Positions 20,941 to 59,988 of a stretch of DNA of 64,000 nt are shown here, piece by piece. The DNA lies in NCBI RefSeq assembly GCF_022846255.1, contig NZ_AP025682.1; one strand, 5' to 3'. The notes below the pieces were generated by a model. The model had not been told where the DNA came from. It did not search any database and saw only the letters and a list, made by a program, of their open reading frames with translations. Each line of letters begins with the position of its first letter. Position 1 is the stretch's first letter. The translations under genes and the position numbers were made by a program. The stretch is from Escherichia coli. GTDB lineage: Bacteria > Pseudomonadota > Gammaproteobacteria > Enterobacterales > Enterobacteriaceae.

Positions 20941-20955
20941 ATAATATGGCTCCTA

Positions 20956-20989
20956 AACAACAAAAGGCCAATTTAGGCCTTTTGTTGTT
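20956..20989 (-). terminator. 14-bp perfect hairpin between the 305-aa cargo gene and the helicase gene
   Basis: AACAACAAAAGGCC / GGCCTTTTGTTGTT with loop AATTTA; 3' arm is U-rich on the minus-strand transcript. Confidence 0.45.
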
Positions 20990-21002
20990 TTAAAAATGTT
21001 AT

Positions 21003-21920: not shown

Positions 21921-21935
21921 AGCTTACACAGACTC

Positions 21936-22414: not shown

Positions 22415-22604
22415 CGTCCACCTCCTTACGCTTTTCGCGCATGTTCTGCATCAGACAAAAATCAAACCGACGTTCGCTTTGGCCCAGACCTGCATCGCCC
22501 GGTCGTACCCGCTGGACTGTTCAAGGCGCAAAGCCTCCCGCGCAGTCCGGTAATAAAGCGGACTGTCCCGGTATTTAAATGACATAGGGTTTTTATTCCC
22601 AAAT

Positions 22605-22625
22605 AAAAAACCCCGCAATGCAGGG
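22605..22625 (-). terminator. hairpin with U6 after the 253-aa cargo gene
   Basis: Minus-strand CCCTGC / GCGGGG stem with one G-U pair and a 3-nt loop, followed by U6. Confidence 0.4.
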
Positions 22626-22649
22626 TTGTAATCAACAATAAGGGGGTAA

Positions 22650-23411
22650 TTACGAGGAAGCGTTAGCTATTTGAGCTTGTGTAAATTCGAAACCAGAATT
22701 TTGTAACCGTTGCACTAGACGAGGAACTGTTTCACGTACATGGTCGTTGAAATTCAGATACAAAATCCCGTTAGCATCAGAAGGCTGTTCTAGGTGCTGT
22801 TTCTGAAGGATTGCTACATTGCTGCGCCCTAAGGACGAAAGAAGCATACCCATCTCGAGTACAACGTTCTGTCTTGCGCGGGGTTGGATTTCTGCTTCAC
22901 CGGCGCGCTTTGAGTATCCCATATCATCAGGTGTCAAAAGAACAATCCCGAAACGGGTAGCAGTTTGTCCTTGCCCAATTTCACGTTCAAGCTCTTCAAT
23001 AATGGTGAGTCCAGTCCCTCCCGTATTCTGCAAAATGAAATGGTCTGGTAATCCAAGTTTATGAAGGATTAGCTCAAGTTGTTCCTTTGCAGTATGGTCA
23101 TGGCCGTGAACAATGAATATCTTTTTGGGAAGCTCAGATGGCTGTTCTACGGCTAGTGGTGTTGCCGTGGGGGGCGTTCCTAAATGGGACATTATTGCAG
23201 TTTCAACATTGGGACGTTCTTGAGGGTTACCTTGAAACTGAATGGTCCGGGTGGTGTAAAGGTTAACAATTACGCCATTCGTTAAACGATAGCAGTCATA
23301 AGTCTCACGCTGTTCGTGGGAAAAATTGGTGAACCCACACTCCCTCAAAAAGTCAGGAAAAGATTCTCTCGGGTATGGATAGGTGATCGGCATTTCAGTT
23401 AGTTCCTGCAT
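22650..23411 (-). CDS. hypothetical cargo protein with C-terminal TIR-like domain
   Basis: 253 aa; KKIFIVHGHDHTAKEQLELILHKLGL and RARQNVVLEMGMLLSSLGRSNVAILQK resemble the COG4271-type TIR-like nucleotide-binding fold (from memory of motifs); unrecognised ~100-aa N-terminal domain. Confidence 0.45.
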   Translation of the reverse strand: MQELTEMPITYPYPRESFPDFLRECGFTNFSHEQRETYDCYRLTNGVIVNLYTTRTIQFQGNPQERPNVETAIMSHLGTPPTATPLAVEQPSELPKKIFIVHGHDHTAKEQLELILHKLGLPDHFILQNTGGTGLTIIEELEREIGQGQTATRFGIVLLTPDDMGYSKRAGEAEIQPRARQNVVLEMGMLLSSLGRSNVAILQKQHLEQPSDANGILYLNFNDHVRETVPRLVQRLQNSGFEFTQAQIANASS

Positions 23412-23475
23412 AAGTATTGTTCCTTTAATTTACTCGAATTCAGCATGTCGCCATAGCTCGATAAGGTGAGTTATA

Positions 23476-25551
23476 TCAATCTTTTTTGTAGTGGTACGCC
23501 TCAAAGCCGCCAGCGTTCAGCGGAATATCGGGTGCCCATTCGGGGTTAGTGGAGAGAAGCGCGGAAAGCGCTTTATCGTTGAAATCTTCTGTGTCTGGTG
23601 CTTCGGTGATCACCTCGTCGTGTACCGTTAGCACAATGCTGTAACCGGCACCCTCGATCAGCGGCATGTTTCTGGCCAGAACGTCGCGGGCGGCCGCCTG
23701 GGTGACGTTCTCCACCAGCTTTCCGCCGTAGGTTTTGAGTCGTTGCCATTTACGCGAATAAGAGTTAACACCCATGTAGGTGATATTCCCTTGTTCGATA
23801 ACCGGAGACGGGTAGCATACAGCGCGTCCGGATGGTAGCTGTATGCGCAGCCACGCGCCATCACGTCGGATTTTAAGATAGCCGCAATACAATGTTTTTT
23901 GCGGTGTGGCGATTGCTGTGCGGACAGTGCGCTCCAGCTCGTACCAGAAATCGCAGGTCGCCGGGTGCGCCCTGCGCCACAGGCGCTTGAGCGAGTCACA
24001 TGCGATGAATACACGCTCGGACAGGCCAAAGGTCGACTTACGCTTAACCGATTCGTCGTACCAGCTTTTTGCCTCGCGGATAACATCGCGGGGAATGTTT
24101 GGCAGTGCGGCGTTCGCCAGCTCGTCGAGATCGAGACCGTAAACCAGAGCAAAAGTGATGAAAGCCGATACACCACCTCCATAACCCAGACCGAGTTCCA
24201 TGACTTTACCGATCTGACGCATGTGTTTATCAACATCATCTGGTGCAATATCGAAAGCTTTTGCATACGCCAGTTTATATAAGTCCGGACCCGTTCCAGC
24301 GTCATACTCTCTGAATGCATTCAGTTTCCATTCTTCTCCCGCCAGCCATGCCAGCATACGGCCTTCAATGTTTGACAAGTCACTTACCACTAGTTTTTTG
24401 CCTGTTGGCGCGATAATGCAGCCACGTAACGCTGAACTGGTTAGTTCCATGATATTGTCAAACAGCAGGTCTGCACATCCGGCTTTCAGTGCTTCGATGC
24501 CTTCGTCTATTTGTTCCTGTTTTAGTGAAGGGCGGGGAAGGTTCTGGGGCTGGAATAGCCGTCCGGCCCAACGACCGGTACGTGACGCCCCGCAGAACTG
24601 TAGCGTACCGCGTAAGCGCCCGTCGTGGCTTACGCCTTTCATCAGTGCCTTGTATTTACTGGTGCTGGTAGTACTGGCTTGCAGGCGGATAGCCAGCAGT
24701 TCTTTCACGGCAGATGATAAATCGGGGTCGGCCATACGACGTTCCAGGGTACTGCGTTGCATGTCTGGTAGCTCCACACCGTAGGATTCAACGATGTGCT
24801 TAATCAACGCGTCCCGTTGTGTGGCTGCCTGCACTTCGCCATCAGTCATTTCCTGTGTACGCTTTGCTAGGCGCTTTTGCTCCTGGTCTACCGCTTCGAT
24901 CGCAGCGCGCGCGAGTTGCATGTCCATGCAGACGCCCCGGTCGTTGATCTGCTGATCACGATGCCAGAGCGCCAGCTCTGTCCCCTGATAATTCCACTTC
25001 GGCAGACGTTTATAGACTTCGCGCATTGCCTCGATATCCAGTCCGGCGTAAGCAACAAAGCGCCGCCATTCTTCCGGGTGGGTTTTGCTGGTGGCACGGC
25101 GCAGTTTGCTGTTTTTCGGGCGGGGCTTACAGAACAGCTGGATCAGCGCTTTACCTTCTTTGTCCTTCGCTTTGTCTTGCGGGACGCCGAGTATTTCGCA
25201 GAGTTCCCCCAGAGACCCCGGGAGACCGTGCGCCAGCGCCTGCACCATTGTGTCTCGCCAGCGTTTGGCGCTACCTGCAACAACGCATTGGGGAGTGTGC
25301 AGCAATGCATGGCGCAACATGGTGCGATCGAAATGGCTGTTGTGTGCATATATTAGTACGCTCTCATCGCTGAGAGCTGTCAGTAGTCGTGTCGGCAAGT
25401 TATAGTCTGTGGTTAAATCGTGTACGCTGACGGGGTCTTCGTCGATTGCCCATGCGAATAACATGATTTCGACTCCTTCTGCATAGACATGGGTGCCGTT
25501 TTTTATTGGGATTTCGCTGAAAGTTTCGAGGTCTAACCAAAGTTTTTGCAT
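23476..25551 (-). CDS. family A DNA polymerase (PolA-like, exonuclease + polymerase)
   Basis: 691 aa from the first ATG ([13 protein letters not shown]... exonuclease-like); the ORF-track start at 25593 is TTG and lies inside the upstream hairpin. Confidence 0.8.
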
Positions 25552-25580
25552 CAAGTAAGGACCCGTTGGATTTAATAAAT

Positions 25581-25607
25581 AAAAAGCCGCCAAAATGGCG
25601 GCTTTTT
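25581..25607 (-). terminator. rho-independent terminator directly after the SIR2-like gene
   Basis: GCCGCC / GGCGGC stem with a 5-nt loop, flanked by A5 and T5 (bidirectional shape). Confidence 0.6.
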
Positions 25608-25627
25608 ATAACCGAAGTTAAGAATGC

Positions 25628-27130
25628 TTAATATGATAAATAATCATACAAGCATAAAAGTCGCCTGTATTGGGTATCAATTTTATGCCCTGGTTTTGTT
25701 AAATAATCTCGTAGTTGTTTCAATGAAATAGTATCGTTTAGTACGCAATACATAATCGTGTTAGCAACTTTATACTCTTTCGTTTCTTTTAGTATTTCAT
25801 CAATAGACACAGCCTCACTCTTACATGTTTTAATTCGAGAAAGGTTACCAATGATTTTATCTAGCTGCCGTTTTCTGTATGTCTCGGTATTTTCTAGTTC
25901 AGGGCAGATAGAACTAAAAGCGTATATTGGAAAGTGTTCGCTATTAGCTATGGTTTGCTTATTCAGTAATGCGATAAGCTGAGAGTTTGCTTCGTCAACT
26001 ATTTTAAAATAGTTCTGTATCATTTCAGATTTTGTTTGATAAACATATTGTACGGTTCTTTCTGAACCAACAGCAATGACCATTTCATCATTGCGAAGTT
26101 CATCTAAATTTTCTGTAATTTTAACCTTTATCTCACCACCACTTTTGATGGTACTCCAAACTTTTTGAACCTTTCTTATGTCCATTGCGGATACTGGCAA
26201 AACTAGTCCCGAGATGGCATCATATACAGCTTTGTAATTGTTTGTTTTTATTTTGTTTATTCTTATGATAGACATGCCTTCTATATCTATGTCATGCTCC
26301 GTAATTTCAGTTGACATGCTGTCTTTTTCGTATTCAACCAAAAGAAAATTATCTTTTATCCTTTTTGCAAGTTCGGTATTTAAGTCAACGTATGAGAATA
26401 TGGTTTTTAATAAGTACTTAATGTTTTTATCGCTAATACTATACCCTATAAATATGATAGGGTTGTGTATGAATATTGAGAGTAATTGAGCGCGAATTAA
26501 CTCATATTTATTGTCGAAGTTTGCGTAGTCTTCACCTGTGATAATTATGTTGTTAGGATCACTAACACAGCCATGTATTTTGTAAACTGAACCGTATGGG
26601 TTACTTAAAAGAATGTTATTACCAATCAGTGGGTTAAATTCGAAGATGTTCTCTACGAGTTGGTCGTAGTTTGTTGTAATGATGGAGCCTATGTTTTTTC
26701 TTGTTTTTATTAAGCTGTTTATTTCCTCCATCATTGACTCTTTTATCTTTAGGTCTTTAAGTATTGAAGTTAAATAAATTTTGAATCGACTTAGTTTTTT
26801 TCCTTTTTTCATGTGCTCATAGAAAACATCATTGATGTCTTTGAACTTACCGTTACGATCTTCTGCCAGCTTTTTATTAAAAATATCTTCAAGTTTTGTA
26901 GCTAAGATATCATATCGATAGTCGTCACCTTCTAGGCTTTCAGCTTTCAAATCGTAGTAAAACTCAGCATTACCGGTTAGTTCCATTGCGACACTCAAAA
27001 GAAGACCATCCCAGCTAAATGAGTTTTCTAGATACCGTAGGCTAAATCCTGTTCCAATGAATAGAACAGGGTGGTTTTTATAGTGACTTACAAACTCTTG
27101 GATTTCCATACCGATTCTCAAAGTTGACAC
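25628..27130 (-). CDS. SIR2-like domain protein (SIR2_2 / ThsA-type N-terminus, unknown C-terminal domain)
   Basis: 500 aa; LFIGTGFS, ITTNYDQLVE, KIHGCVSDPNNIIITGEDY and PIIFIGYSISDKN align by eye with the ThsA SIR2 motifs; GTG start with AGAGG Shine-Dalgarno (alternative ATG at 27109); AT-rich. Confidence 0.7.
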   Translation of the reverse strand: MSTLRIGMEIQEFVSHYKNHPVLFIGTGFSLRYLENSFSWDGLLLSVAMELTGNAEFYYDLKAESLEGDDYRYDILATKLEDIFNKKLAEDRNGKFKDINDVFYEHMKKGKKLSRFKIYLTSILKDLKIKESMMEEINSLIKTRKNIGSIITTNYDQLVENIFEFNPLIGNNILLSNPYGSVYKIHGCVSDPNNIIITGEDYANFDNKYELIRAQLLSIFIHNPIIFIGYSISDKNIKYLLKTIFSYVDLNTELAKRIKDNFLLVEYEKDSMSTEITEHDIDIEGMSIIRINKIKTNNYKAVYDAISGLVLPVSAMDIRKVQKVWSTIKSGGEIKVKITENLDELRNDEMVIAVGSERTVQYVYQTKSEMIQNYFKIVDEANSQLIALLNKQTIANSEHFPIYAFSSICPELENTETYRKRQLDKIIGNLSRIKTCKSEAVSIDEILKETKEYKVANTIMYCVLNDTISLKQLRDYLTKPGHKIDTQYRRLLCLYDYLSY

Positions 27131-27220
27131 GTAATACCTCTATAAAAACAAATAGCCGTAAAAATTCCAATAGCTTTTTGGATCTCGCCCGGTGTGTAAC
27201 CGGGCGTCTATGAAGAAGGG

Positions 27221-30158: not shown

Positions 30159-30253
30159 ATCGGGGAGCACGCTGTTGCGAGTGCGCTTTCAGACATAAAA
30201 AAGCCCGTCACTTGAGGCGGGCAAAGACTACACACAGCAATTACATGGATGAT

Positions 30254-30448
30254 TCAGTTGGTATTGTGCGTACGTGGTACCACAAGGTTGAAGCGGACAC
30301 GCCAGTGCGTTGCAATGGTATGCAGGAAAGCACCACATCCAGGGCAGTGCTCATAACATTCGTTGATTTGGTATCGTTTTGGCTTTGGTGTCAGAAGCTG
30401 TGTTTGGCAAGCAGGGCATTCACCTTTGAGCGGTTTATACGTTTTCAC
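30254..30448 (-). CDS. zinc-ribbon protein (hypothetical)
   Basis: 64 aa with CPAC...CPGC; GTG start with GAGGA Shine-Dalgarno. Confidence 0.4.
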   Translation of the reverse strand: MKTYKPLKGECPACQTQLLTPKPKRYQINECYEHCPGCGAFLHTIATHWRVRFNLVVPRTHNTN

Positions 30449-30720
30449 GCCGTTTCCTCATTCAGTTCACTTTGGTGGTTCGGCGGCTTCGACTTGTATC
30501 AGTAGACAGTGCTTCGCCGCACCCCAAAGGGAACTTACTGACCCGTATTGCCGACATCCTGTCCCGCCACGGTCCCGACGCATGGTTTAGAGTCGCGCCG
30601 TTCGACTTGTGGTTTAAATATCTGTGTATAGATATCTTAACTTTACGCGTATAGTTAAGACTTCTAAACTCACAAAGTCAAGTGTTGAGGTTAAGAAAAG
30701 TGAACTTTTTCGGATAGGTA

Positions 30721-30746
30721 AAGAAAAGCCCGCTTAGGAAGCGGGC
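30721..30746 (-). terminator. rho-independent terminator after the repressor gene
   Basis: GCCCGCTT / AAGCGGGC stem with loop AGG, followed on the minus strand by UUUUCUU. Confidence 0.55.
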
Positions 30747-30770
30747 ATGTGGTATAGAGTGAATTTACGC

Positions 30771-31463
30771 TCAGAGCAGAACGGAGTACCAAAATACTTG
30801 GCCTATAATCCTGATTTTATTAGCCTCTTGATTAAAATACTCTTCGTCTGCGTATTCATCCCTATTGAAAGAGCGTATCCGGAGTCCGCTTGGGAGACGG
30901 TACAATAGTTTGACACGAAGTAATCCGTCTTGGTCTATGGCGTACATTTGACCATCTTTTACACCTGTTTTTGATGTATCTATGCCGACGACAGCGCCAT
31001 CCGGTAATACCGGTTCCATGCTGTTGCCGTGGATGCTGACACAAGCCGCACAATTTACGTCAACACCTGCTTTGCGCAACGTTGAACGGGCGAATCTTAA
31101 CTTACATCCCATTCGATCTATATCAACATAAGTACCATTACCGGCAGATAGCTCAATTTCCTGATAGAACGGTATTTCCACTTCATCATCCTCTAATGGC
31201 GTTGATGAGTCCCATACAGAAAACCCTCCCTCAACTTGTGCATTAGAATGTATTTCTTTGGTATCGCTTGTTTTGCCTGAAAGTAGCCACTCTGGAGAAA
31301 CGTTCAATGCTTCGGCCAGATTTATAAGATTTTTCCCGTTAGGTGTGGTGTTTCCGGATTCCCATTGTGAAATCGTGGCTTTAGTTAGACCAATACGTTT
31401 AGCAAGCGCATCCTGCGTTAGGTGGACATTGCGACGAGCCTCGCGAATACGATCATTAATCAT
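30771..31463 (-). CDS. CI-like repressor (HTH plus S24 LexA-like peptidase)
   Basis: 230 aa; N-terminal helix-turn-helix (LTQDALAKRIGLTKATISQWESG) and C-terminal S24 fold; divergent from a cro-like gene. Confidence 0.85.
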   Translation of the reverse strand: MINDRIREARRNVHLTQDALAKRIGLTKATISQWESGNTTPNGKNLINLAEALNVSPEWLLSGKTSDTKEIHSNAQVEGGFSVWDSSTPLEDDEVEIPFYQEIELSAGNGTYVDIDRMGCKLRFARSTLRKAGVDVNCAACVSIHGNSMEPVLPDGAVVGIDTSKTGVKDGQMYAIDQDGLLRVKLLYRLPSGLRIRSFNRDEYADEEYFNQEANKIRIIGQVFWYSVLL

Positions 31464-31471
31464 GGTTTTAC

Positions 31472-31553
31472 CCTCATATAGTTTAGTTAGCTTAACTTAA
31501 TCAGGGTATCGCTTTCTTGACTTGTTGGTTTAGTTTTCTTAACCTCATATAAC
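31472..31553. promoter_or_regulatory. immunity-region operator/promoter segment
   Basis: Repeated CCTCATATA, GTTTAGTT and CTTAAC motifs in two mirrored arrays; candidate rightward promoter TTGGTT (31525..31530), 17 bp, TATAAC (31548..31553). Confidence 0.4.
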
Positions 31554-31576
31554 CATATATTTCCTGGGTAACGGTT

Positions 31577-31762
31577 ATGAAAAAAGCAGAAGCAATTGAG
31601 CTTGCAGGAAGTAAAGCGAAACTAGCGAGACTATTGAAGGTTTCCAAAGGAGCCGTATCTCAATGGGGGGAGGAAATCCCAGAGTTAAGAGCTCTTCAAC
31701 TTGAAAAGATTTTGGAGCAAAAAAATGTAGTCAAACAAAAAGGCTTAACCCATGTCCGATAG
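31577..31762 (+). CDS. Cro-like helix-turn-helix regulator
   Basis: 61 aa; LAGSKAKLARLLKVSKGAVSQW helix-turn-helix. Confidence 0.65.
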   Translation: MKKAEAIELAGSKAKLARLLKVSKGAVSQWGEEIPELRALQLEKILEQKNVVKQKGLTHVR

Positions 31763-34217: not shown

Positions 34218-34640
34218 ATGCGTAATATTCAACAGGTTTTAGAGCGCTGGGGTGGCTGGGCAGCGAGTGAAGGTGGTAGCGTCTACTTTCCTCCTGTTGC
34301 AGCCGGGTTTAAGAATCTGCTACCCGCGACGCAGTCTGGAAGGCTGAAATGCAGTGACAATGACGGTCTTATCATCAACTCCGCTATGAGCTGCCTGAAG
34401 AAAAAAGATCCGTATCTGTGCACGCTCCTTGAGTGGCATTACGTCCAGGCCATGCCCGTGCGGGCGATGGGTGAGAAGCTCGGCGTATCTCACACCCACG
34501 TTCTGAAGAGGCTTCAGGCGGCAGAGGGATTTATTGACGGTTGCTTAGCCATGCTGGATGTGGTGCTCGAAATGGATCAGTCGGTTCAGTCAAAGCCTCA
34601 GGCGATCAGGACTTTGCGTAGGAGCTGCTCGGCGGCATAA
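34218..34640 (+). CDS. late-gene antiterminator Q (QuuQ-like)
   Basis: 140 aa; MRNIQQVLERWGGWAA... resembles lambdoid Q as recalled; lies upstream of the lysis cassette. Confidence 0.75.
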   Translation: MRNIQQVLERWGGWAASEGGSVYFPPVAAGFKNLLPATQSGRLKCSDNDGLIINSAMSCLKKKDPYLCTLLEWHYVQAMPVRAMGEKLGVSHTHVLKRLQAAEGFIDGCLAMLDVVLEMDQSVQSKPQAIRTLRRSCSAA

Positions 34641-34671
34641 TATCCAGCAATCAATCACGTAAGGGAACCAG

Positions 34672-35013
34672 ATGGCTCTGATCAGCGTTCGCAACAGATT
34701 TGAAAGCTTCATGGAACAGAGGTACCCAGACCTGTCGTTGCAGGTCAAAGGTAATATTAGCGCATCAATGAAGGCTCAACTTGGCATCAGGATTGAACGA
34801 GAATTGTACAGTGAAGATGTTACTTACTGTGATTCAGCAGTTCAGTTGATGTGGACACTCTTTCAGGCAGGTGTTCTGGCCGAACGAAGAGCTACCAGCG
34901 TTACGCTTCCTGCGCTGAAGGCAAAGCCGGATAGCTTATACGATGCGGGTTATAACGAAGGTATTCAGGACTGTCGTAAACATCTGACGGCATCAGGCAT
35001 CAAGGTAAGATAA
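34672..35013 (+). CDS. hypothetical protein between Q and the lysis cassette
   Basis: 113-aa ORF followed by a terminator at 35080..35104. Confidence 0.45.
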   Translation: MALISVRNRFESFMEQRYPDLSLQVKGNISASMKAQLGIRIERELYSEDVTYCDSAVQLMWTLFQAGVLAERRATSVTLPALKAKPDSLYDAGYNEGIQDCRKHLTASGIKVR

Positions 35014-35079
35014 AAAATAGTTGTGGAATTCCAAAAAGCCGATTAGCCTGATATCCGTTGAAAACAGTTCATCACGAAG

Positions 35080-35104
35080 AGGCTTCCGCAAGGGGGCCTT
35101 TTTT
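35080..35104 (+). terminator. rho-independent terminator
   Basis: AGGCTTCC / GGGGGCCT stem with two G-U pairs and a GCAA tetraloop, then T5. Confidence 0.55.
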
Positions 35105-51050: not shown

Positions 51051-52112
51051 ATGTCACAGAACTGGATGAGACATTTCGAGCTGCAGCTTGTGGACGGGAA
51101 CGGTCAGGGAATTGAGCTAAGTGATTTCAAAGTCACCTTTACGATCGACTGGTTCAACATCAGCAGCGCGTCCCGGGTAGGGACTATCAAAATTTATAAC
51201 CTTTCGGCAGATACTGTGAACCGAATTACCGGGCAGGAGTTTTCGAAAGTGCGTCTGATTGCGGGTTACGACGGTATCGCGCCGGAGGTGTCGGCAAGCG
51301 ACGTCGGGACAGTGCGGGAAGTTGACGCGGCGGACGTGGGCCAGAGTGATGGTCGCAACTACGGACTGATTTTCAGCGGTGAAATTCGCTACTCGGTCAC
51401 AGGAAAAGACAGTCCGGTTGATTCCTACGTCCTGATTCAGGCAGCAGATACTGATCTGGCTTTTGCCACCAGTATAACCTCACAGACGCTGGCTGCCGGT
51501 TACACGGTCGCTGATGTGAACCGTGCGCTGATGAAAGACTTCGAAGCCAAAGGTGTGACCGAAGGCCTGACGCCTGAAATGCCTGCTACTGTATTCCCCC
51601 GGGGGCGGGTGCTCTTTGGCATGACGCGGCATCTAATGGATAACGTAGCCGGGCAATGTGGCGCAACATGGCAATTCGTGGACGGTCAGCGCCAGATGGT
51701 GGCGACTAATGAATATGTTCACGAAGCGATTGTGCTCAACAGTGCTACCGGGCTTATTGGCATGCCGCAGCAGACCATCGGCAACGGCGTAAACGTCCGC
51801 GCTCTTATTAATCCGAACATCCGGGTTAACGGGCTCATTCAGCTGGATCAGGCTTCCGTCTATCGTACCGCGTTGTCGAACAACGATATTGCGATGGCTG
51901 GTGGTCAGATCACCGACCAGAACACGGACGGAAATATCACGCTCAGCGGCACCACATCGCAGCCTGCCAGCATCGCAACGGATGGAGTTTATATTGTGCG
52001 CGGGATTATGTACAGTGGCGATACAAGGGGCCAGGCGTGGTACATGGATATGATGTGCGAAGCGCGTGGCGCGGCGGATCTGTATACGCAATCGGCTTTG
52101 CAAAGGGGATGA
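51051..52112 (+). CDS. baseplate/tail protein (putative)
   Basis: 353 aa; position. Confidence 0.4.
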   Translation: MSQNWMRHFELQLVDGNGQGIELSDFKVTFTIDWFNISSASRVGTIKIYNLSADTVNRITGQEFSKVRLIAGYDGIAPEVSASDVGTVREVDAADVGQSDGRNYGLIFSGEIRYSVTGKDSPVDSYVLIQAADTDLAFATSITSQTLAAGYTVADVNRALMKDFEAKGVTEGLTPEMPATVFPRGRVLFGMTRHLMDNVAGQCGATWQFVDGQRQMVATNEYVHEAIVLNSATGLIGMPQQTIGNGVNVRALINPNIRVNGLIQLDQASVYRTALSNNDIAMAGGQITDQNTDGNITLSGTTSQPASIATDGVYIVRGIMYSGDTRGQAWYMDMMCEARGAADLYTQSALQRG

Positions 52113-52115
52113 GCA

Positions 52116-52457
52116 ATGAGGGGTATTATTTTTCTGTTAGCTGTCTTTTCTGCGTGCAGCGCGTGGGCGGATGGCTTCACGGTTAAATGCGGTGGCTACA
52201 CTATGGTTGCAAACCAGGGCGAGTTATCGACAATCAACGGTGAAAGAGTTACCTCTCAAAAAATCACCGAACTGGGTACCAATGGTTTGAAAGTAGACAT
52301 GGGGCTTATGCCTGCCAAAGACGGTAACAACTACGGCTTTGAATACATTCGTCGCCCTGGTACCGAAACGCGATTCCTGAATGTCCAACTGCTGCAGAAC
52401 AGCATGGATGCGCCGAAAATCATCGGTTCCTTTCCATGCAAAAAGATTGTTGATTAA
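52116..52457 (+). CDS. secreted small protein / possible lipoprotein (cargo)
   Basis: 113 aa; N-terminal signal sequence MRGIIFLLAVFSACSAWA; inserted between baseplate genes. Confidence 0.45.
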   Translation: MRGIIFLLAVFSACSAWADGFTVKCGGYTMVANQGELSTINGERVTSQKITELGTNGLKVDMGLMPAKDGNNYGFEYIRRPGTETRFLNVQLLQNSMDAPKIIGSFPCKKIVD

Positions 52458-52474
52458 TCACTCGTAATTATAAT
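52447..52474 (+). promoter_or_regulatory. candidate sigma-70 promoter for the 79-aa membrane-protein gene
   Basis: TTGTTG, 16 bp, perfect TATAAT; about 37 bp upstream of the ATG at 52511. Confidence 0.45.
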
Positions 52475-52510
52475 GTGGTACTTCTACTTTCACGATAAGG
52501 AATTTGTCGC

Positions 52511-52750
52511 ATGTTCGGATTTGATAAATTAATAACTCCAAAAATCATCAACGTTCTGTATGGCATCACAATGTTACTTCTGGTTGTTGCCGCCATTATA
52601 ACGTTTGTTAATGGGAAGGCTGCTGGCGCTTTAGTGCTTTTGTTATGTGCTGTATTTTGCCGAATATTCTTTGAGTGCATCATGGTTTCATTTAAAAACA
52701 ATGAGTATCTTCGCCGAATAGCTGAAGCGTTAGAAGCAAACAAGCAGTAA
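52511..52750 (+). CDS. small two-helix membrane protein (cargo cassette)
   Basis: 79 aa with two hydrophobic helices; own promoter and terminator; AT-rich. Confidence 0.5.
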   Translation: MFGFDKLITPKIINVLYGITMLLLVVAAIITFVNGKAAGALVLLLCAVFCRIFFECIMVSFKNNEYLRRIAEALEANKQ

Positions 52751-52766
52751 TGAAACTTCAATAATG

Positions 52767-53915: not shown

Positions 53916-55114
53916 TGGCTCTGAACCTTGATTCTCTCGGTTTATCTGCAAAGGTAACCGCGGAGGGGATCAGTGCGCCTGATTATCAGACGATACTCAG
54001 CACCCTGATTAGCTATTTTCAGCAGATTTATGGCAGTGATGCCTACCTCGAACCGGACAGCAAAGACGGCCAGATGGTGGCTCTGACGGCGCTGGCGATT
54101 CATGATGCCAATAATATGGCGATAACTGTCTACAACTGTTTTTCACCGGCAACCGGCTATGGGGCTGCACTGACCAGTAACGTGAAAATAAATGGTATTT
54201 CACGTAAAGGCGCGACGAACTCTACGGTTGATTTGCTTCTTACAGGAACTGCCGGAACAACCATCATTAATGGCAGCGTGAAAGACAGTAATAATGTGAT
54301 ATGGCGTTTGCCTGCTTCAGTGGTGGTCGGCGTGGATGGTACAGTGATGGCGACCGCAACATGTTCCGTCAGTGGTGCAGTGGCGGCGCTGGCTGGAACT
54401 ATCACTGAAATTAATACGCCAACCCGTGGCTGGGTTTCGGTAACTAATCCTGCTGCGGCTACTGTTGGCTCTCCGGCAGAAACTGATGCTGAGTTACGTA
54501 TCCGCCAGTCGCAAAGTGTTGCGTTGCCATCAATAACCCCATTTGAAGCACTGGATGGTGCTGTTTCTAATGTTACCGGTGTAACCCGCCACAAACTCTA
54601 TGAAAACGATACTGGTTCGGAGGACGGTAACGGGTTACCGCCACACTCTGTTGCTGTAATTGTGGATGGCGGTGATGTGACGGATATTGCTCAGGCTATC
54701 AGAGGGAATAAAGGCCAGGGGACAGCCACTCACGGTACAACATCCGTTACGGTTCCGGATAAATACGGCAATCCCCATGTAATCAAATTCTCGCGTTCCA
54801 GTGATGTGCCTGTTTATGCCCGGATTAAATTAAAAGTTTTTACGGGTTATACCTCACAGATAGGGCAGCAGATCCAGCAGGCTATTTCCGACTATATCAA
54901 TAGTTTGACGATTGGTGATTCGGTCCTTTTAAGTCGCATTTACTCACCGGCGAATCTTGGCGTGGTGAGTGGCGGGAATGCACGCTATTACGATATTCAG
55001 GAACTGACGATTGGGAAATCCCCGGGGGCTTTGTCGTCATCAAACATTGATATCAGATACAACGAATCTGCGTCCTGTACCCCGGAAAATATCGTTATAA
55101 CGGTGGAGTCATGA
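53915..55114 (+). CDS. baseplate J-like protein
   Basis: 399 aa; position and size. Confidence 0.55.
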   Translation: MALNLDSLGLSAKVTAEGISAPDYQTILSTLISYFQQIYGSDAYLEPDSKDGQMVALTALAIHDANNMAITVYNCFSPATGYGAALTSNVKINGISRKGATNSTVDLLLTGTAGTTIINGSVKDSNNVIWRLPASVVVGVDGTVMATATCSVSGAVAALAGTITEINTPTRGWVSVTNPAAATVGSPAETDAELRIRQSQSVALPSITPFEALDGAVSNVTGVTRHKLYENDTGSEDGNGLPPHSVAVIVDGGDVTDIAQAIRGNKGQGTATHGTTSVTVPDKYGNPHVIKFSRSSDVPVYARIKLKVFTGYTSQIGQQIQQAISDYINSLTIGDSVLLSRIYSPANLGVVSGGNARYYDIQELTIGKSPGALSSSNIDIRYNESASCTPENIVITVES

Positions 55115-55791
55115 GCAAATACACCGAACTAATCACGAACTACCACGCCACCAAACCTAAATTTCTTGCGCATGTTGATCTGATGACCCGGCCGCTTATT
55201 GATGCTGCGGCGGCCACCAGAGGGCTGATTACTGCATTTGATATTGACTCTGCGGTTGGTGTGCAACTTGACATTCTGGGATTGTGGATCGGACGTAGCC
55301 GTGTTGTCAGCCAGCCTATCTCAGGTGTCTATTTCAGCTGGGATACCGACGGGCTTGGATATGATCAGGGGGTATGGCAGGGACCATACGATCCTGATTC
55401 CGGATACATGTACCTCAGCGATGAAACTTATCGTGTCATTCTTAAAGCGAAGATTGCGATTAATAACTGGGATGGACGGAATGATTCGCTTCCGGCAATT
55501 CTTGACGCTGCAACAGCAGGATCCGGGCTGCGAATGCAGATAGTCGATAACCAGGACATGACGATATCGGTCTGGGTCTTTCCTGATACTGATATTTCAG
55601 ATGTATCGCGTGAGTTAATTGCGGCAATTAAACAGGGGTATCTCACAGTAAAAGCCGCCGGGGTATGGGCGGGTGGCATTGAAACACCTTCGGTGGAAAC
55701 CCCATCGGAAGGCTCAAAATTTTTTGGTTTTGATATGGATAACGAATTCATCAGTGGTTTTGATGTAGGAGCATGGGGAGTATTACTCTGA
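55111..55791 (+). CDS. baseplate/tail-fibre-associated protein (Mu gp48-like)
   Basis: 226 aa; between the J-like and fibre genes. Confidence 0.45.
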
Positions 55792-56609
55792 TGGCGAAAA
55801 ATGACTTTAAAGCGTTTGCAACGGATCGAAATGCCAATGTTATATCGCAGGAGGAATGGGAAGCGTTGCCCGCGCTTGTATCCGGATTTACAGCAGGGAA
55901 AGCCTCCAGTGCGCAAGTCAATAAGGTTATTCGGCAGGCCAGCTTTATTGCTGCAGCTCTGGCCCAGTTTGTAAGTGATAAAACGCAACGGGATGTGCTT
56001 GATAATGGTGATCTGCCCGGTTTTGTTGAATTGCTGGGATCGGGGTTTGCTGTTGAATACCTGAGCCGCAAGAATCCGTTTGGTGATATCAAATCGGATG
56101 GCACGGTGAAAACGGCTCTCGAAAACCTTGGTTTGGGAGAAGGCTCTGCATTACCTGTTGGTGTGCCTGTTCCGTGGCCCTCCGCAACCCCGCCAACGGG
56201 CTGGCTGAAATGCAACGGCGCTGCCTTTGATAAGGTGAAATATTCCCATCTTGCTACAGCATATCCATCAGGGAAACTACCTGATCTCCGTGGTGAGTTT
56301 ATTCGTGGATGGGATGACGGGCGTGGTATTGATGCAGGACGTGCTTTATTGAGCATTCAGACTGGGATGCTGGAAAAACACCGCCATATTGTTGTTGCCA
56401 ACGATGGGTATGATTCAAAAGAGGAATGGGAACTGGCGACAATCTTCAGAAGAGCATATACGCAAGGCCGGGGGCTTGATGCTGCCGATGCCGGAGGAAC
56501 TCTGATTCCATCACCAACGCTACATACACGAGGGAGTATTGGTAACACAGGTGGGAGCGAAACCCGTCCACGAAATATTGCATTTAACTATATCGTGAGA
56601 GCTGCATAA
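55773..56609 (+). CDS. tail fibre protein (constant N-terminus plus invertible variable C-terminus)
   Basis: 278 aa; crossover site lies within codons 117-124 (ENLGLGEG). Confidence 0.7.
56128..56142. repeat. left crossover site of the invertible segment (gix/hix-like)
   Basis: TTGGTTTGGGAGAAG, inverted repeat of 58069..58083; contains the AAACC-TT-GGTTT core typical of Gin/Hin sites. Confidence 0.6.
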
Positions 56610-57211
56610 TGGATAAAGCCGTATTAAATAGCGAACTTATTGCCACGAAGGCGGGGAATATTACCGTCTATAACTATGATGGTGAAACACGGGAATATAT
56701 TTCCACTTCAAATGAATATCTTGCCGTTGGTGTCGGTATCCCGGCATATTCCTGTTTAGATGCTCCTGGCACATATAAGGCTGGTTATGCAATCTGCCGT
56801 TCAGTAGATTTAAACTCATGGGAATATATGCCAGACCATCGCGGTGAAATTATCTATAGCACCGAAACAGGAGAAGCAAAAGAAATCACAGCTCCGGGTG
56901 ATTACCCTGAAAATACAACCACTATCGTCCCGTTAACGCCATATGATAAATGGGATGGTGAGAAATGGGTGACAGATTCTGAGGCACAACACGGTGCCGC
57001 AGTAGAAGCGGCAGAAGCACAGCGCCAGTCACTGATTGATGCAGCAATGGCTTCCATCGGTCTGATTCAGCTGAAATTACAGGCCGGACGGAAGCTGATG
57101 CAGGCAGAAACAACCCGGCTTAACGCTGTGCTGGATTACATTGACGCGGTGACGGCAACAAATACCAGCACAGCGCCGGATGTCATCTGGCCTGAACTGC
57201 CGGAGGCGTAG
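56609..57211 (+). CDS. tail fibre assembly protein (U-like)
   Basis: 200 aa; C-terminal TSTAPDVIWPELPEA-type motif. Confidence 0.65.
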   Translation: MDKAVLNSELIATKAGNITVYNYDGETREYISTSNEYLAVGVGIPAYSCLDAPGTYKAGYAICRSVDLNSWEYMPDHRGEIIYSTETGEAKEITAPGDYPENTTTIVPLTPYDKWDGEKWVTDSEAQHGAAVEAAEAQRQSLIDAAMASIGLIQLKLQAGRKLMQAETTRLNAVLDYIDAVTATNTSTAPDVIWPELPEA

Positions 57212-57626
57212 GCCATTCAATATCTGGCGCACAGGAAGTATCGACCAGTTCCAGTGCGTCCAGATAATCCAGCCATAAATTATATTGCTCCAGCTCGTTA
57301 CCTTTCAGACGACCAATAGCAGCTTTGCCAGGCCACTGATGGGTATTGATGTAAGTATTGGCTTCTGAAACCAAAGATATTTTTTTCATTTCAGCCATCA
57401 ACACCTCATCCTCTTTTGAAGGCGGTGGGGAATTAATCCATATTGGCCGTCCTGAACTGTCAGCGCCAATTTCTTTCCCTTCTGGATGCAGCCCAAGAAA
57501 TTGCTCATATGTTTCTCGGGTAATTTCAATAACATCATCTGGAAGCGTTCCCGCATCCTCATATTCTGGAAACAATTCTTGTAGATAAAAACTTTTACTT
57601 CCGGGTGAAAAGAATACTGAGTTCAT
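57183..57626 (-). CDS. alternative tail fibre assembly protein (U'-like)
   Basis: 147 aa on the opposite strand; C-terminus TSCAPDIEWPTPPAVQAR paralogous to the plus-strand gene. Confidence 0.6.
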   Translation of the reverse strand: MNSVFFSPGSKSFYLQELFPEYEDAGTLPDDVIEITRETYEQFLGLHPEGKEIGADSSGRPIWINSPPPSKEDEVLMAEMKKISLVSEANTYINTHQWPGKAAIGRLKGNELEQYNLWLDYLDALELVDTSCAPDIEWPTPPAVQAR

Positions 57627-57628
57627 TA

Positions 57629-58123
57629 TTACCGTCCAATGATTAACGCTGAGACGCTGGTATCTGAAGGAAAGGCTGCATTCAGTGGTTTGTCGACTTT
57701 GAACACAATCGTATTATTCCCCCTGACAGCGGCAAAAGAACAAACCGCAGTCGCGTATGAACCTGTAATATTACTGGATACACCACCATAAGCTGTTGTT
57801 GATACCAGAGGGATAACGCCCAGCACCTTATTAGGAAATACAAAGGGCAATGTGGCTGTGGCAATATAAGACTTATTAGAGCCTGTGATGGCATAAGCAT
57901 TATCAGTCATTCCATTCATCGCCACCGGGCCGCTTATACTTACAGTAACCATCTGAATGATTAGCCCGTCAGGTTGACGAATCACAAAATTTCCATTGCC
58001 ACCAGTAACCGTCCAGAAAGACATATCAGGGATTTGGTTTTCCCCGTTGCCCACATTCCGTTTTGCCGCTTCTCCCAAACCAACGTTTATGAAAATGCAG
58101 AAATAACGAGCAAATGGCATCAT
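57629..58123 (-). CDS. alternative tail fibre variable C-terminal segment (Sv'-like)
   Basis: Minus-strand ORF whose 5' end (..INVGLGEAAK) spans the right crossover site; expressed only after inversion fuses it to the constant fibre N-terminus. Confidence 0.55.
   Translation of the reverse strand: MMPFARYFCIFINVGLGEAAKRNVGNGENQIPDMSFWTVTGGNGNFVIRQPDGLIIQMVTVSISGPVAMNGMTDNAYAITGSNKSYIATATLPFVFPNKVLGVIPLVSTTAYGGVSSNITGSYATAVCSFAAVRGNNTIVFKVDKPLNAAFPSDTSVSALIIGR
58069..58083. repeat. right crossover site of the invertible segment
   Basis: CTTCTCCCAAACCAA, reverse complement of 56128..56142; about 67 bp upstream of the invertase start. Confidence 0.6.
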
Positions 58124-58149
58124 TCCTGCTTTTGTCAGGGAGATCTACC

Positions 58150-58704
58150 ATGCTTATTGGCTATGTACGCGTATCAACAAATGACCAGAATACCGATCTA
58201 CAACGTAATGCGTTGAACTGTGCAGGATGCGAGCTGATTTTTGAAGACAAGATAAGCGGTACAAAGTCCGAAAGGCCGGGACTGAAAAAACTGCTCAGGA
58301 CATTATCGGCAGGTGACACTCTGGTTGTCTGGAAGCTGGATCGGCTGGGGCGTAGTATGCGGCATCTGGTCATTCTGGTTGAGGAGTTGCGCGAACGTGG
58401 CGTTAATTTTCGCAGCCTGACGGATGCTATTGATACCAGCACACCGATGGGGCGTTTTTTCTTTCATGTGATGGGGGCCCTGGCTGAAATGGAACGAGAA
58501 CTGATTGTTGAACGAACAAAAGCTGGACTGGAAGCTGCTCGCGCACAGGGACGAATTGGTGGACGTCGTCCCAAACTTACACCAGAACAATGGGCGCAGG
58601 CCGGGCGACTAATTGCATCAGGAGTTCCTCGCCAGAAGGTGGCGATCATTTATGATGTTGGCGTATCGACTTTGTATAAGAAGTTTCCGGTCGGAGATAA
58701 ATGA
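58150..58704 (+). CDS. serine DNA invertase (Gin/Pin/Hin family)
   Basis: 184 aa from MLIGYVRVSTNDQNTDLQRNAL...; closely resembles Mu Gin as recalled; the ORF-track start at 58114 is an upstream in-frame ATG. Confidence 0.85.
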   Translation: MLIGYVRVSTNDQNTDLQRNALNCAGCELIFEDKISGTKSERPGLKKLLRTLSAGDTLVVWKLDRLGRSMRHLVILVEELRERGVNFRSLTDAIDTSTPMGRFFFHVMGALAEMERELIVERTKAGLEAARAQGRIGGRRPKLTPEQWAQAGRLIASGVPRQKVAIIYDVGVSTLYKKFPVGDK

Positions 58705-58784
58705 AACCGTAGCACGTCGTATGCAAGAACGTGCCACGGCTGGCTGATAAGCTTGTAAAAATATTGAACAGGGAGTGGAGCATT

Positions 58785-59432
58785 CTATGAAGCTAATTTG
58801 TTTAATTTCATTTGTAGTGACTTTACTTCTTGGTCGATAATGTCGAATCCCTTATTGACAGCATCTCTTAGCTCTGCATCAATATTTTTTATCCCTTGAG
58901 CATAATCTACCATTACATTTATTTTTGCATCATGTAATCTCTTATACATGGTTTTATCTTTGTTATTGTCTGCCATGCCAATAAGGATTTTTTCATAATC
59001 CTCAATGAGTTTGTTGTTTCCTTTAAATGATTGTATTAATGAGCGTGAATATGTGTATATGTTAATTATTGAGTCTCTAGCAGAATCATTTAGTTTTGCA
59101 ATGACATTCGCATTTTGCTCATAGAATGTGAAATTATCATCCCCTACAGGGAATGTGAGAATCAACATTTGTCCCGGTTTTATATTATCAATGTGTGTTT
59201 TCATCCTTTTATTATATAAATTGATTAGGGTGAAAACTTCTCCCTTAACTCCTTTTAATACTGAAAGTTGTAATTCAAGGGATTCTCTTTCTGTCTCTAC
59301 TTTAGACAGCTTAGCTTGTTGGGTAACTCCTTTTAGGGTAAACCATCCGCCAATAAGAGTACCAACTAGAGCTGTGAGGGAGGAGGATAACCATCCAGGT
59401 ATGCTATTTAAAAGATTACTAAATTCACTCAT
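58785..59432 (-). CDS. membrane-anchored coiled-coil protein (cargo, unknown function)
   Basis: 215 aa; N-terminal membrane helix (SSLTALVGTLIGGWFTL), coiled-coil, C-terminal domain; very AT-rich. Confidence 0.45.
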   Translation of the reverse strand: MSEFSNLLNSIPGWLSSSLTALVGTLIGGWFTLKGVTQQAKLSKVETERESLELQLSVLKGVKGEVFTLINLYNKRMKTHIDNIKPGQMLILTFPVGDDNFTFYEQNANVIAKLNDSARDSIINIYTYSRSLIQSFKGNNKLIEDYEKILIGMADNNKDKTMYKRLHDAKINVMVDYAQGIKNIDAELRDAVNKGFDIIDQEVKSLQMKLNKLAS

Positions 59433-59490
59433 TATAAGTACTCGCTAATATTGAACGATATATATATCAAATTATTATAAAACTCGTCAG

Positions 59491-59769
59491 CTACTGGAGC
59501 AGGCTACCTGAACTTCGATCTATTCCTGCATCCATATAGTTGATGGTCTTCTGGAGCTCTTCGATTAGGGCAACAGCTTTTGCTCGAGAAATGCATATTA
59601 GTTGATCCGGAAATTCTTGTAAGGGCCAGTTTGGTATACAGGCCATGTTATCAGTGAAGGATGCAGACAAGTAAACTTCATTGGTAACCAGAGAATAGCT
59701 TACCTCAAAATTGGTGAGTTCCGGCAAACTGCTAACGTTTGACTCTTTTCTGCGCATAATATTATCCAT
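59491..59769 (-). CDS. small hypothetical protein (cargo, upstream partner of the membrane protein)
   Basis: 92 aa from the internal ATG (MDNIMRRKES...); the ORF track extends to 59919 through the G10/C10 tract; AT-rich. Confidence 0.4.
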   Translation of the reverse strand: MDNIMRRKESNVSSLPELTNFEVSYSLVTNEVYLSASFTDNMACIPNWPLQEFPDQLICISRAKAVALIEELQKTINYMDAGIDRSSGSLLQ

Positions 59770-59851
59770 GACTGTAATTATGTACAGGTGATGGTCTTCA
59801 ATTTCGAAGAGGGAGTCAAGGGGGAGTCTCAAATGAACCGTTATAGAAAAA

Positions 59852-59861
59852 GGGGGGGGGG
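59852..59861. repeat. G10 homopolymeric tract
   Basis: Ten consecutive G upstream of, or within an N-terminal extension of, the 59491..59769 gene. Confidence 0.5.
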
Positions 59862-59970
59862 ATCTTTGTGTTGCTGAACTTATGCAAAATTTTTTTGCAC
59901 CATAAATCCAACAACACATTCAATAACACATTGCTGTATCACTATGAAAATAAATGTGTTTTTATTTGAT

Positions 59971-59988
59971 TTCACACATATCACAATT
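59971..59988. repeat. attR core, 18-bp direct repeat TTCACACATATCACAATT
   Basis: Identical to 17692..17709. Confidence 0.7.

Follow-up and report, generated by a model that had tools for sequence, protein, structure and literature searches.

The question raised by this locus is whether part of a prophage tail-fibre operon, bounded by a short inverted repeat and lying beside a DNA invertase gene, can be flipped so as to exchange one fibre tip for another, and to which of the known inversion systems such a switch would belong. An initial annotation of the window (the whole stretch of Escherichia coli DNA analysed here, 64,000 nucleotides) had proposed an invertible host-range segment of the Gin/Hin type. 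Our analysis makes it very probable that this is a site-specific inversion switch of the Pin type (Gin/Cin/Hin family), which has two states and sits on the tail-fibre operon of an E. coli prophage that is complete. The coordinates of its parts are collected in Table 1.

Table 1. Features of the invertible tail-fibre locus, in window coordinates
Feature	Position	Strand	Basis or remark
Left crossover site, pixL type	56116-56141	.	CTCTCGAAAACC TT GGTTTGGGAGAA; central dinucleotide 56128-56129
Right crossover site, pixR type	58070-58095	.	TTCTCCCAAACC AA CGTTTATGAAAA; central dinucleotide 58082-58083
Constant N-terminal fibre part (Sc)	55791-56129	+	ORF list; PGAP start in near-identical locus L001
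Fused, expressed-state tip (Sv), StfE/collar-domain type	56130-56609	+	Pfam, PHROG and K-12 stfE similarity
TfaE-type tail-fibre assembly chaperone for the fused tip, 200 aa	56609-57211	+	phrog_105, tfaE similarity, PGAP names
Silent-tip assembly chaperone, 147 aa	57183-57626	-	phrog_188
Silent alternative tip (Sv')	57629-58081	-	In frame with the constant part once inverted
Putative leader, 13 codons, MMPFARYFCIFIN	58084-58123	-	Own ATG outside the segment; within ORF 57629-58123
Pin-type serine DNA invertase, 184 aa	58150-58704	+	PinE/Cin/Gin identity, structure matches, phrog_125
Putative recombinational enhancer (putative Fis-binding region)	58168-58239	.	In the 5' end of the invertase gene

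Crossover sites

Both arms of the 15-bp inverted repeat on which the initial annotation was built were found to be exact, with TTGGTTTGGGAGAAG at 56128-56142 and its reverse complement at 58069-58083, and the left arm does lie within the tail-fibre gene, inside the open reading frame 55773/55791-56609. With a repeat finder each arm grew to 20 nt (56123-56142 and 58069-58088) at a complementarity of 95%; between the arms lie 1926 nt. Taken alone, the 15-mer repeat is only mildly unlikely to have arisen by chance: the window holds two exact inverted 15-mers less than 3 kb apart, against a mean of 0.175 over 40 composition-preserving shuffles, 4 of which held at least one such pair. What marks the repeat as non-random is that both of the full 26-bp sites are those of the e14 element of E. 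coli K-12, and that natural inversions have their breakpoints inside it.

In each site, 12-bp half-sites flank a 2-bp core, and the cores are equal when read as inverted repeats (the reverse complement of the right site has the same TT core as the left), so that the Gin/Hin-type architecture that had been described is borne out. The two sites are inverted relative to each other, with imperfectly symmetric half-sites and matching cores, as in the sites of serine invertases. At the left site AAACCTTGGTTT is exact; the right site reads AAACCAACGTTT, with a single mismatch that falls in the outer half-site. In the alignment with Mu gix, P1 cix and e14 pix that had been recommended, the site centres align with the points at which the P1 and Mu records place the crossover, and both sites are base-for-base identical to those of e14 in K-12 (positions 3779-3804 of locus L007 for the left site and 5606-5631 for the right). 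A multi-site shufflon like Min of p15B was considered and rejected, as only two sites match AAACCNNGGTTT at two or fewer mismatches in 55700-58300. The other one-mismatch matches to this pattern in the window, at 39554 and 47718, are at chance level (4 found versus 2.3 expected).

Alternative fibre tips and their chaperones

The fibre gene encodes 272 amino acids and is split in frame by the left site. Its start is the ATG of a TGATG at which it overlaps the DUF2612 baseplate gene that precedes it, the in-frame ATG at 55773 being the mechanical start of the open reading frame. Residues 1-125 match the PHROG tail-fibre N-terminal families phrog_11303 and phrog_1396. As had been noted, it is the plus-strand tip that is fused to the constant N-terminus in the window, which is evident from the list of open reading frames. 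The fused tip contains a Pfam Collar domain (PF07484, E = 2.3e-13), matches PHROG tail collar fibre families and has 80% nucleotide identity to K-12 stfE, lying inverted relative to the K-12 record. The 200-aa chaperone matches phrog_105 (tail fiber assembly, E = 3.6e-95), has 89% nucleotide identity to K-12 tfaE and bears assembly-type PGAP names in the related loci L001-L005.

On the opposite strand, the 147-aa chaperone matches phrog_188 (tail fiber assembly protein, E = 2.2e-54). Its gene is convergent with that of the 200-aa chaperone, which it overlaps by 29 bp, and it directly follows the fused alternative fibre in L005 and L012, relatives in the flipped state. The silent tip matches phrog_12714 (E = 1.5e-47) and, weakly, Pfam Gp53-like_C (E = 8.5e-4). 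These family matches confirm two tips and two chaperone genes, and with them the proposal that alternative C-termini and assembly proteins are encoded on opposite strands. Flipping the segment in silico gave an open, in-frame fibre of 263/269 aa, the 263-aa form of which is identical at 258 of 263 positions to a naturally fused protein of strain CFS3292. The constant 5' part joins either 3' part in frame, each with its own assembly gene, and both tips are open and carry a conserved GLGE coding motif. The tips appear to belong to different domain families (Collar versus gp53-like), which would fit the recognition of different receptors.

Invertase and putative enhancer

The Gin-like invertase gene had been placed 67 bp outside the right site, and its ATG at 58150 does stand 67 nt past 58083 and opens an intact gene. 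The predicted protein is 96% identical to K-12 PinE, 81% to P1 Cin and 77% to Mu Gin, and L001, L002 and the flipped L004 encode exactly the same protein. Residues Y5, R7, S9, D33, R42, D64, R65 and R68 are invariant among the window invertase, PinE, Gin and Cin; the initial annotation had allowed for an inactive enzyme, and this was not upheld, every catalytic residue being kept. The best solved structures, 3uj3 and 4m6f (“DNA-invertase”), align over residues 1-181 (E = 1e-93) and have sequences that match Mu Gin, while residues 142-182 match the Hin DNA-binding domain (1hcr). The protein also matches phrog_125 (DNA invertase), and its size and its catalytic/helix-turn-helix architecture agree with those of serine invertases (~185-195 aa). 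Searches of the invertase and two downstream cargo ORFs with NCBIfam and PADLOC yielded no specific family and no defence match.

Residues that contact Fis and the enhancer, conserved in invertases and not in resolvases, have been defined in Hin as Q151, R154 and L155, along with basic residues 47, 48 and 51 (PMC3798978). The window invertase carries the Fis-contact residues Q150, R153 and L154 and the basic residues K46, K47 and R50. The putative enhancer is the positional homologue of the one annotated in the P1 record (cin +19 to +90), and it shares 96% identity with the corresponding stretch of e14, 76% with that of P1 and 75% with that of Mu. Synonymous-site conservation across four sequences is 37% in this region versus 16% in the remaining gene (one-sided p = 0.044), which is weak evidence that the putative enhancer is under selection. 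Two candidates for the Fis-site motif G-N13-C, at 58171-58185 and 58220-58234, were considered and no sites were assigned; P1 does not keep the final C of the first. A consensus scan of 55000-59600 for promoters and terminators gave promoter-like matches that were not above shuffle expectation, none of them placed convincingly ahead of either the invertase gene or the leader ORF.

Host prophage

The host element, which the initial annotation had not recognized, is a prophage of ~42 kb between yfhL and yfhH that is unrelated to e14. All of its head, tail, lysis and replication genes are open and, judged by this gene content, it looks complete. Annotated sheath, tube and baseplate genes mark it as myovirus-type, and a puncturing-spike gene and the DUF2612 baseplate gene are also present. 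Homology with e14 is limited to a 2.7-kb module at 56064-58746. Identity as e14 itself was considered and rejected, as neither the backbone nor the fibre N-terminus is related to that of e14, and the surroundings of e14 (linkage to icd, with ymfQ-stfP upstream and mcrA downstream) were not found around a backbone that is that of the yfhL/yfhH prophage. Because the backbone differs and the homology is confined to this one module, the locus is assigned as a Pin-type module and not as e14.

Both orientations in related genomes

Evidence of the inverted orientation, the lack of which was to have counted against the proposal, is present in public genomes: among complete assemblies of E. coli, the module is oriented as in the window in 49 and flipped in 36. 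In the near-identical prophage L004, which occupies the same position at yfhH and whose flanks are 97-99% identical, the segment is flipped, and the inversion breakpoints fall within 56123-56142 and 58069-58088, that is, inside the 20-nt repeat. The near-clonal isolates 23CRST031 and 23CRST027 carry opposite orientations between flanks that are 99.96-99.98% identical, and a single-nucleotide difference in the inner half-site moves together with the segment. From these relatives we infer that the segment probably flips in the present strain as well. Both orientations of the e14 segment coexist in clonal cultures of K-12 (PMC4272514), and overproduction of PinE increases inversion as measured by qPCR (PMC12529663).

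Matches to Pin-family invertases are present in 3,624 of 5,426 E. coli genomes, at a median of 2 places each. Since inversion at the same sites is also reported for PinQ and PinR, orientation polymorphism is no proof that the local enzyme is the active one; it is nevertheless presumably the local invertase, and not one acting in trans, that does the flipping. Decayed switches also occur among the relatives, with a truncated invertase in ON470588 and a likely inactivating R65W substitution in the invertase of one near-clonal isolate. The “phage” records vB_EcoM-606R2, 611R5 and 683R1 were set aside as evidence of virion production; the only one inspected, ON470588 (611R5), looks like a prophage prediction because it includes the host genes yfhH, pgpC and tadA.

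Proposed mechanism and alternative explanations

In the mechanism that we propose, dimers of the invertase would bind the two 26-bp sites and, by analogy with Hin and Gin, would be activated by host Fis bound to the enhancer in the 5' end of the invertase gene, so that inversion would be expected to depend on both. Both sites would be cut with a 2-bp stagger at the central TT, half of the complex would rotate by 180 degrees, and religation would leave 56130-58081 flipped. The constant N-terminal 113 residues of the fibre would serve as the baseplate anchor, combined with the collar-domain tip and the 200-aa chaperone in the window state and with the gp53-like tip and the 147-aa chaperone in the flipped state. 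Because the constant part can join either tip/chaperone pair, a lysogen population would release two kinds of virion differing in receptor specificity, and inversion would probably change host range.

The putative leader beside the invertase gene reads in frame into whichever tip adjoins that gene, and its ORF is annotated by PGAP as a hypothetical protein. An equivalent leader, MMPFACYFFIFINV, exists in e14 and differs from that of the window at two nucleotides, both amino-acid changing. For StfE2, the corresponding product of e14, a block to adsorption of phage T2 has been reported (Kirigo et al., PMC12529663), and in the Mu record the CDS Mup52 extends 28-29 nt beyond the G-segment boundary on the invertase side. 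The switch might therefore work while its selected role lies in the lysogen and not in the virion: the invertase-adjacent tip, expressed via the leader, would be a free receptor-binding protein that masks outer-membrane receptors, and inversion would switch resistance to other phages on or off, in line with what has been reported for StfE2 of e14 and phage T2. A leader ORF with its own ATG that reads into the pin-proximal tip and is kept in e14, a Mu CDS crossing the segment boundary on the same side, and an e14 inversion reported to create StfE2 are all in keeping with such a role, which we nonetheless regard as unlikely here. The prophage is complete, unlike e14, with open head, tail, lysis and replication genes, and virion host range is for that reason the simpler selected function. 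In addition, both nucleotide differences in the leader being nonsynonymous, nothing points to purifying selection on the peptide; the consensus scan showed no promoter-like site directly upstream of the leader; and no DNA similarity could be detected between the pin-proximal tip of the window and the StfP tip of K-12. A dual role, in which inversion changes virion host range and the lysogen also expresses the off-virion tip through the leader as a receptor-masking protein, is quite unlikely; if true, each flip would alter which outside phages the lysogen excludes.

That the segment has become a frozen relic in this strain, its invertase unexpressed, its enhancer defective or Fis unable to activate it, would agree with the absence of an identified promoter in the scan and with the decayed copies in relatives, including the R65W isolate. 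This is improbable, however, given an invertase identical to that of L004, whose segment is oppositely oriented at the same locus, catalytic and Fis-contact residues that are all intact, sites that are the very ones experimentally shown to recombine, and an enhancer region so close to that of e14. Inverted repeats can mislead assemblers, and the GLGE motif shared at the tip starts provides some common sequence, so that the orientation differences might be ascribed to RecA homologous recombination or to assembly errors at a short inverted repeat. The shared repeat is merely 20 nt, however, and 20 nt is short for efficient RecA recombination. Breakpoints that fall on sites identical to experimentally proven pix sites, an intact dedicated invertase next to them, the two orientations in many independent complete assemblies, and their occurrence in K-12 cultures verified by PCR and qPCR make such an origin extremely improbable. 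The Pin-type inversion switch remains the preferred reading.

Significance

The locus is an ordinary intact copy of a long-known Pin/Gin-type switch, a sound finding and not a new one. Inversion of fibre genes by Pin, Gin and Cin has been textbook knowledge since the 1980s. Public E. coli genomes already carry the module under the annotation pinE, and inverting fibre genes with DUF2612 neighbours were already caught in a systematic survey (PMC9881135). The value for annotation is that this prophage has a fibre gene with two alternative 3' ends, that the 164-aa “hypothetical protein” beside the invertase gene is a silent fibre tip and no independent gene, and that the region may legitimately be found in either orientation in different assemblies. 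The locus further shows, in clean form, how a module of fibre tips and invertase has been grafted onto a baseplate-attachment domain to which it is unrelated. As a weaker possibility, the 2.7-kb unit of adaptor peptide, site, cassettes, site and invertase gene may be a portable cassette that moves between unrelated tail modules.

Comparison with known systems

Judged by sequence, the closest relative is the Pin/pix system of e14 rather than Gin or Hin. The two share the order of a site within the fibre gene, a tip with its chaperone, a convergent chaperone with its tip, a second site and the invertase gene. The TfaE/StfE-type cassette is common to both at 80-89% nucleotide identity, as is the 13-codon leader, and the 22 fibre residues before the crossover are 90% identical. 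In contrast, e14 is a defective element at icd, whereas the window holds a complete prophage at yfhL/yfhH. Residues 1-97 of the window fibre are unrelated to either e14 StfP or Mu S, and the second tip has no counterpart in the K-12 StfP tip detectable at the DNA level. The segment measures 1952 bp between crossover centres, compared with 1797 bp reported for e14, and its orientation is opposite to that of the K-12 reference record.

The Mu G segment has a like gene order (S-U-U'-S'-gin, with the invertase 5' end adjoining the right site), an invertase 77% identical, 12-2-12 sites around an AAACC NN GGTTT centre and a homologous enhancer region (75%). It differs in its core dinucleotide (TC in Mu versus TT in the window), in the outer parts of its half-sites, in its length of ~3 kb and in a fibre of 504 aa with a constant part of 169 aa; comparison of the Mu and window fibre proteins gave no significant similarity. 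P1 shares the TT core and has an inner half-site, GGTTTAAGAGAA, comparable to GGTTTGGGAGAA in the window, as well as an invertase (Cin) 81% identical and an annotated enhancer 76% identical to the window. P1 has cixL next to the 3' end of cin, whereas in the window the right site is next to the 5' end of the invertase gene; the P1 segment is 4.2 kb with a fibre of ~988 aa.

Finally, judged at the level of protein residues, the Hin system of the Salmonella H segment (flagellar phase variation) is alike in invertase subfamily and mechanism, and the residues known from Hin to contact Fis, like the basic residues of its helix B, are conserved in the window. Hin, however, flips a promoter to switch flagellin genes and does not swap coding 3' ends, as the present segment would.

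Crossover sites and gene layout of the invertible segment

The initial annotation had described a tail-fibre segment flanked by a 15-bp inverted repeat, and both arms were recovered exactly: TTGGTTTGGGAGAAG occupies 56128-56142, and 58069-58083 carries its reverse complement without a mismatch. A repeat finder extended the pair to 20 nt with 95% complementarity (56123-56142 and 58069-58088), leaving 1926 nt between the arms. By itself the repeat length is statistically modest, with two exact inverted 15-mers no more than 3 kb apart in the window, where 40 shuffles averaged 0.175 and four of them held at least one; the significance of the repeat lies in its identity rather than its length. The other such pair in the window forms a tight hairpin (20955-20990) just downstream of a minus-strand helicase-like ORF (19546-20940).

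Each arm falls within a 26-bp site of 12-2-12 design, in which the inner half-sites of the two sites are identical and the outer half-sites differ. Read as inverted repeats, both sites have the asymmetric core TT, as religation following a 180-degree rotation requires. A search for a further crossover site within the segment yielded none, which makes this a simple two-state switch. An additional 18-nt inverted repeat with 83% complementarity (57130-57147 and 57256-57273), close to where the two convergent assembly-protein genes end, probably reflects a C-terminal motif common to both proteins (LDYIDA and LDYLDA) and not a recombination site.

Features of the invertible segment and its borders
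Feature	Coordinates	Strand	Details
Tail-fibre gene (mechanical ORF)	55773-56609		spans the left site
Left site	56116-56141		CTCTCGAAAACC TT GGTTTGGGAGAA
Assembly-protein gene, 200 aa	56609-57211	+	tail-fibre assembly match, E 3.6e-95
Assembly-protein gene, 147 aa, convergent	57183-57626	-	tail-fibre assembly match, E 2.2e-54
Silent fibre tip	57629-58081	-	phrog_12714, strong; Pfam Gp53-like_C, weak (E 8.5e-4)
Right site	58070-58095		TTCTCCCAAACC AA CGTTTATGAAAA; reverse complement TTTTCATAAACG TT GGTTTGGGAGAA
Invertase gene, 184 aa	58150-58704		separated from the right site by a 54-bp spacer that holds a GGGAGA ribosome-binding site

As proposed, the tail-fibre gene contains the left site. This gene probably begins at the ATG at 55791, which forms a TGATG overlap with the gene before it and is also the start used in the PGAP annotation of a 98.9% identical locus. 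The constant part of the fibre matches tail-fibre N-terminal PHROGs, and the fused tip, predicted to be the expressed one, matches a tail-collar fibre domain (Pfam Collar, E 2.3e-13). Judged by homology, these PHROG and Pfam matches agree with the roles assigned to the fibre parts and assembly proteins, including the alternative tips encoded on opposite strands.

Inversion among natural genomes

Both orientations were sought in public genomes. An inverted sequence was built in silico by exchange at the central dinucleotides, and both versions, restricted to the module (56064-58746), were searched against complete E. coli genomes, counting matches in one collinear place at a coverage threshold of 80%, which a genome in the opposite state cannot reach because the segment alone makes up only 73% of the query. 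The module was oriented as in the window in 49 genomes and flipped in 36. Strain OkiPb01695 also has this prophage at yfhH, in the same position and with flanks of 97-99% identity, an identical invertase protein and the segment inverted; its collinear and inverted alignment blocks with the window overlap exactly at 56123-56142 and 58069-58088.

In strains 23CRST031 and 23CRST027 the module resides in a third prophage backbone. Over 6 kb per side the flanks of the two strains share 99.96-99.98% identity, and the 1.9-kb segment has opposite orientations in them. One inner half-site differs by A/G, a difference present in the left site of one strain and the right site of the other, which limits the exchange to 15 bp about the core. 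The protein from the in-silico flip is identical at 258 of 263 residues to the fibre naturally fused in strain CFS3292. In clonal K-12 cultures both orientations coexist, at e14 sites identical to those of the window (PMC4272514), and overproduced PinE or PinQ raises inversion at the e14 sites (PMC12529663).

The switch has decayed in ON470588.1 ("Escherichia phage vB_EcoM-611R5"), where truncation leaves 315 bp of the invertase gene and 168 bp of the second fibre tip. The record was deposited as a phage; it includes the host genes yfhH, pgpC and tadA, and thus appears to be a prophage prediction and not a virion genome.

Invertase and putative enhancer

The gene beyond the right site, annotated as Gin-like, encodes a protein 77% identical to Gin and 81% to Cin, and closer still to K-12 PinE (96%), in comparisons covering e14 of E. 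coli K-12, the G region of Mu and the C region of P1. Inactivity of the enzyme was sought as a refutation, and the catalytic set Y5, R7, S9, D33, R42, D64, R65 and R68 proved invariant. Among solved structures, the enzyme best matches the DNA invertase entries 3uj3 and 4m6f (E 1e-93), the sequence of both matching Mu Gin. McLean et al. reported that residues contacting Fis and the enhancer are conserved in invertases and not in resolvases (PMC3798978); of this set, Hin Q151, R154 and L155 correspond to Q150, R153 and L154 here, and the Hin basic residues 47, 48 and 51 to K46, K47 and R50.

The P1 record annotates an enhancer at cin +19 to +90. The homologous stretch of the window, 58168-58239, is a putative enhancer that shares 96% identity with e14, 76% with P1 and 75% with Mu. 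At amino acids invariant in all four genes, the codon is identical in 7/19 cases within this stretch vs 16/99 elsewhere (one-sided p = 0.044), a higher retention that is only suggestive. Individual Fis sites are not assigned.

The PinE of 23CRST031 (NZ_AP045800.1, 8042-8596) carries R65W at the catalytic arginine invariant in PinE, Gin and Cin, and this strain may be locked in its present orientation; near-clonal 23CRST027 has the normal residue 65 and the opposite segment orientation.

The prophage carrying the switch

The element between yfhL and yfhH of its E. coli host is a complete prophage with open genes for integrase, DNA polymerase, helicase, VapE primase, Q antiterminator, lysis, terminase, portal, capsid, sheath, tube, tape measure and baseplate. 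Two exact copies of an 18-bp direct repeat, TTCACACATATCACAATT, enclose it, at 17692-17709 (between yfhL and the integrase gene) and 59971-59988 (between the last prophage ORF and yfhH). A match of this length between the two searched stretches (1.2-1.4 kb) is expected by chance ~2e-5 times, and the repeat is a candidate att core, implying an element of ~42.3 kb. Pin-family module matches are very common (3,624 of 5,426 genomes); this backbone with the module occurs in roughly ten to twenty.

Two minus-strand ORFs occupy a typical cargo position between the invertase gene and the right prophage end: 58785-59432 (215 aa), with no match in PHROGs, NCBIfam or PADLOC, and 59491-59919 (142 aa), whose sole match is the unknown-function family phrog_17793. 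The equivalent position holds mcrA in e14, and a GIY-YIG protein and a retron Ec67-type gene in other relatives. Five stretches (20904-23488, 25265-27187, 30250-31738, 34261-35093 and 52069-52760) lack a megablast match in the prophage of strain PS1Thumoskin9, which is otherwise 97-99% identical; they represent mosaic replacements, located in the early/replication region and immediately upstream of the gene for the baseplate spike.

Alternative explanations

We are highly confident that a classical Pin-type invertible tail-fibre switch best explains the locus. Its anatomy is established, all parts are intact, and inversion occurs naturally at these sites; such a switch would be expected to depend on Fis, to be driven in cis by the local enzyme and to change host range. 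That the segment is a frozen relic no longer inverting is improbable, and that its orientations arose by RecA recombination or an assembly artefact is more improbable still, since oppositely oriented relatives carry an identical invertase and the breakpoints are site-precise.

The most interesting rival, rather unlikely though less so than these, is an additional role on the lysogen side, in which the tip beside the invertase gene would be expressed from a leader. Starting at its own ATG, a 13-codon leader on the minus strand (58123-58084) continues into whichever tip adjoins that gene, e14 carries the same leader, and the corresponding e14 product is reported to block T2 adsorption (Kirigo et al., PMC12529663). 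However, the window prophage is complete, both differences from the e14 leader alter an amino acid, and a search for a promoter found none.

Comparison with known systems

The Pin-type switch belongs to a known system, Pin/pix of the Gin family, and inverting fibre genes neighboured by DUF2612 had already been flagged by a systematic survey (PMC9881135). Aligned with e14, P1 and Mu, as the initial annotation had suggested, both sites are identical to those of e14 over all 26 bp, and the annotated crossover points of P1 and Mu align with their centres. Identity of the prophage with e14 itself was rejected, as nucleotide homology is confined to the module, beginning only 52 bp ahead of the left site, at 56064, and stopping just past the invertase stop (58705-58746). 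No similarity to e14 StfP or Mu S was detectable in fibre residues 1-97, and only the 22 residues before the crossover are common to StfP and the window fibre (90% identity). These limits indicate that a 2.7-kb unit, comprising adaptor peptide, site, two cassettes, site and invertase gene, was grafted onto a different baseplate-attachment domain. Its cassettes are exchangeable, as seen in MINF_1D and OkiPb01695, where the second slot has a different gp53-like tip. The K-12 reference record is in the opposite state, whereas the window has the StfE/TfaE-type cassette in the expressed position.
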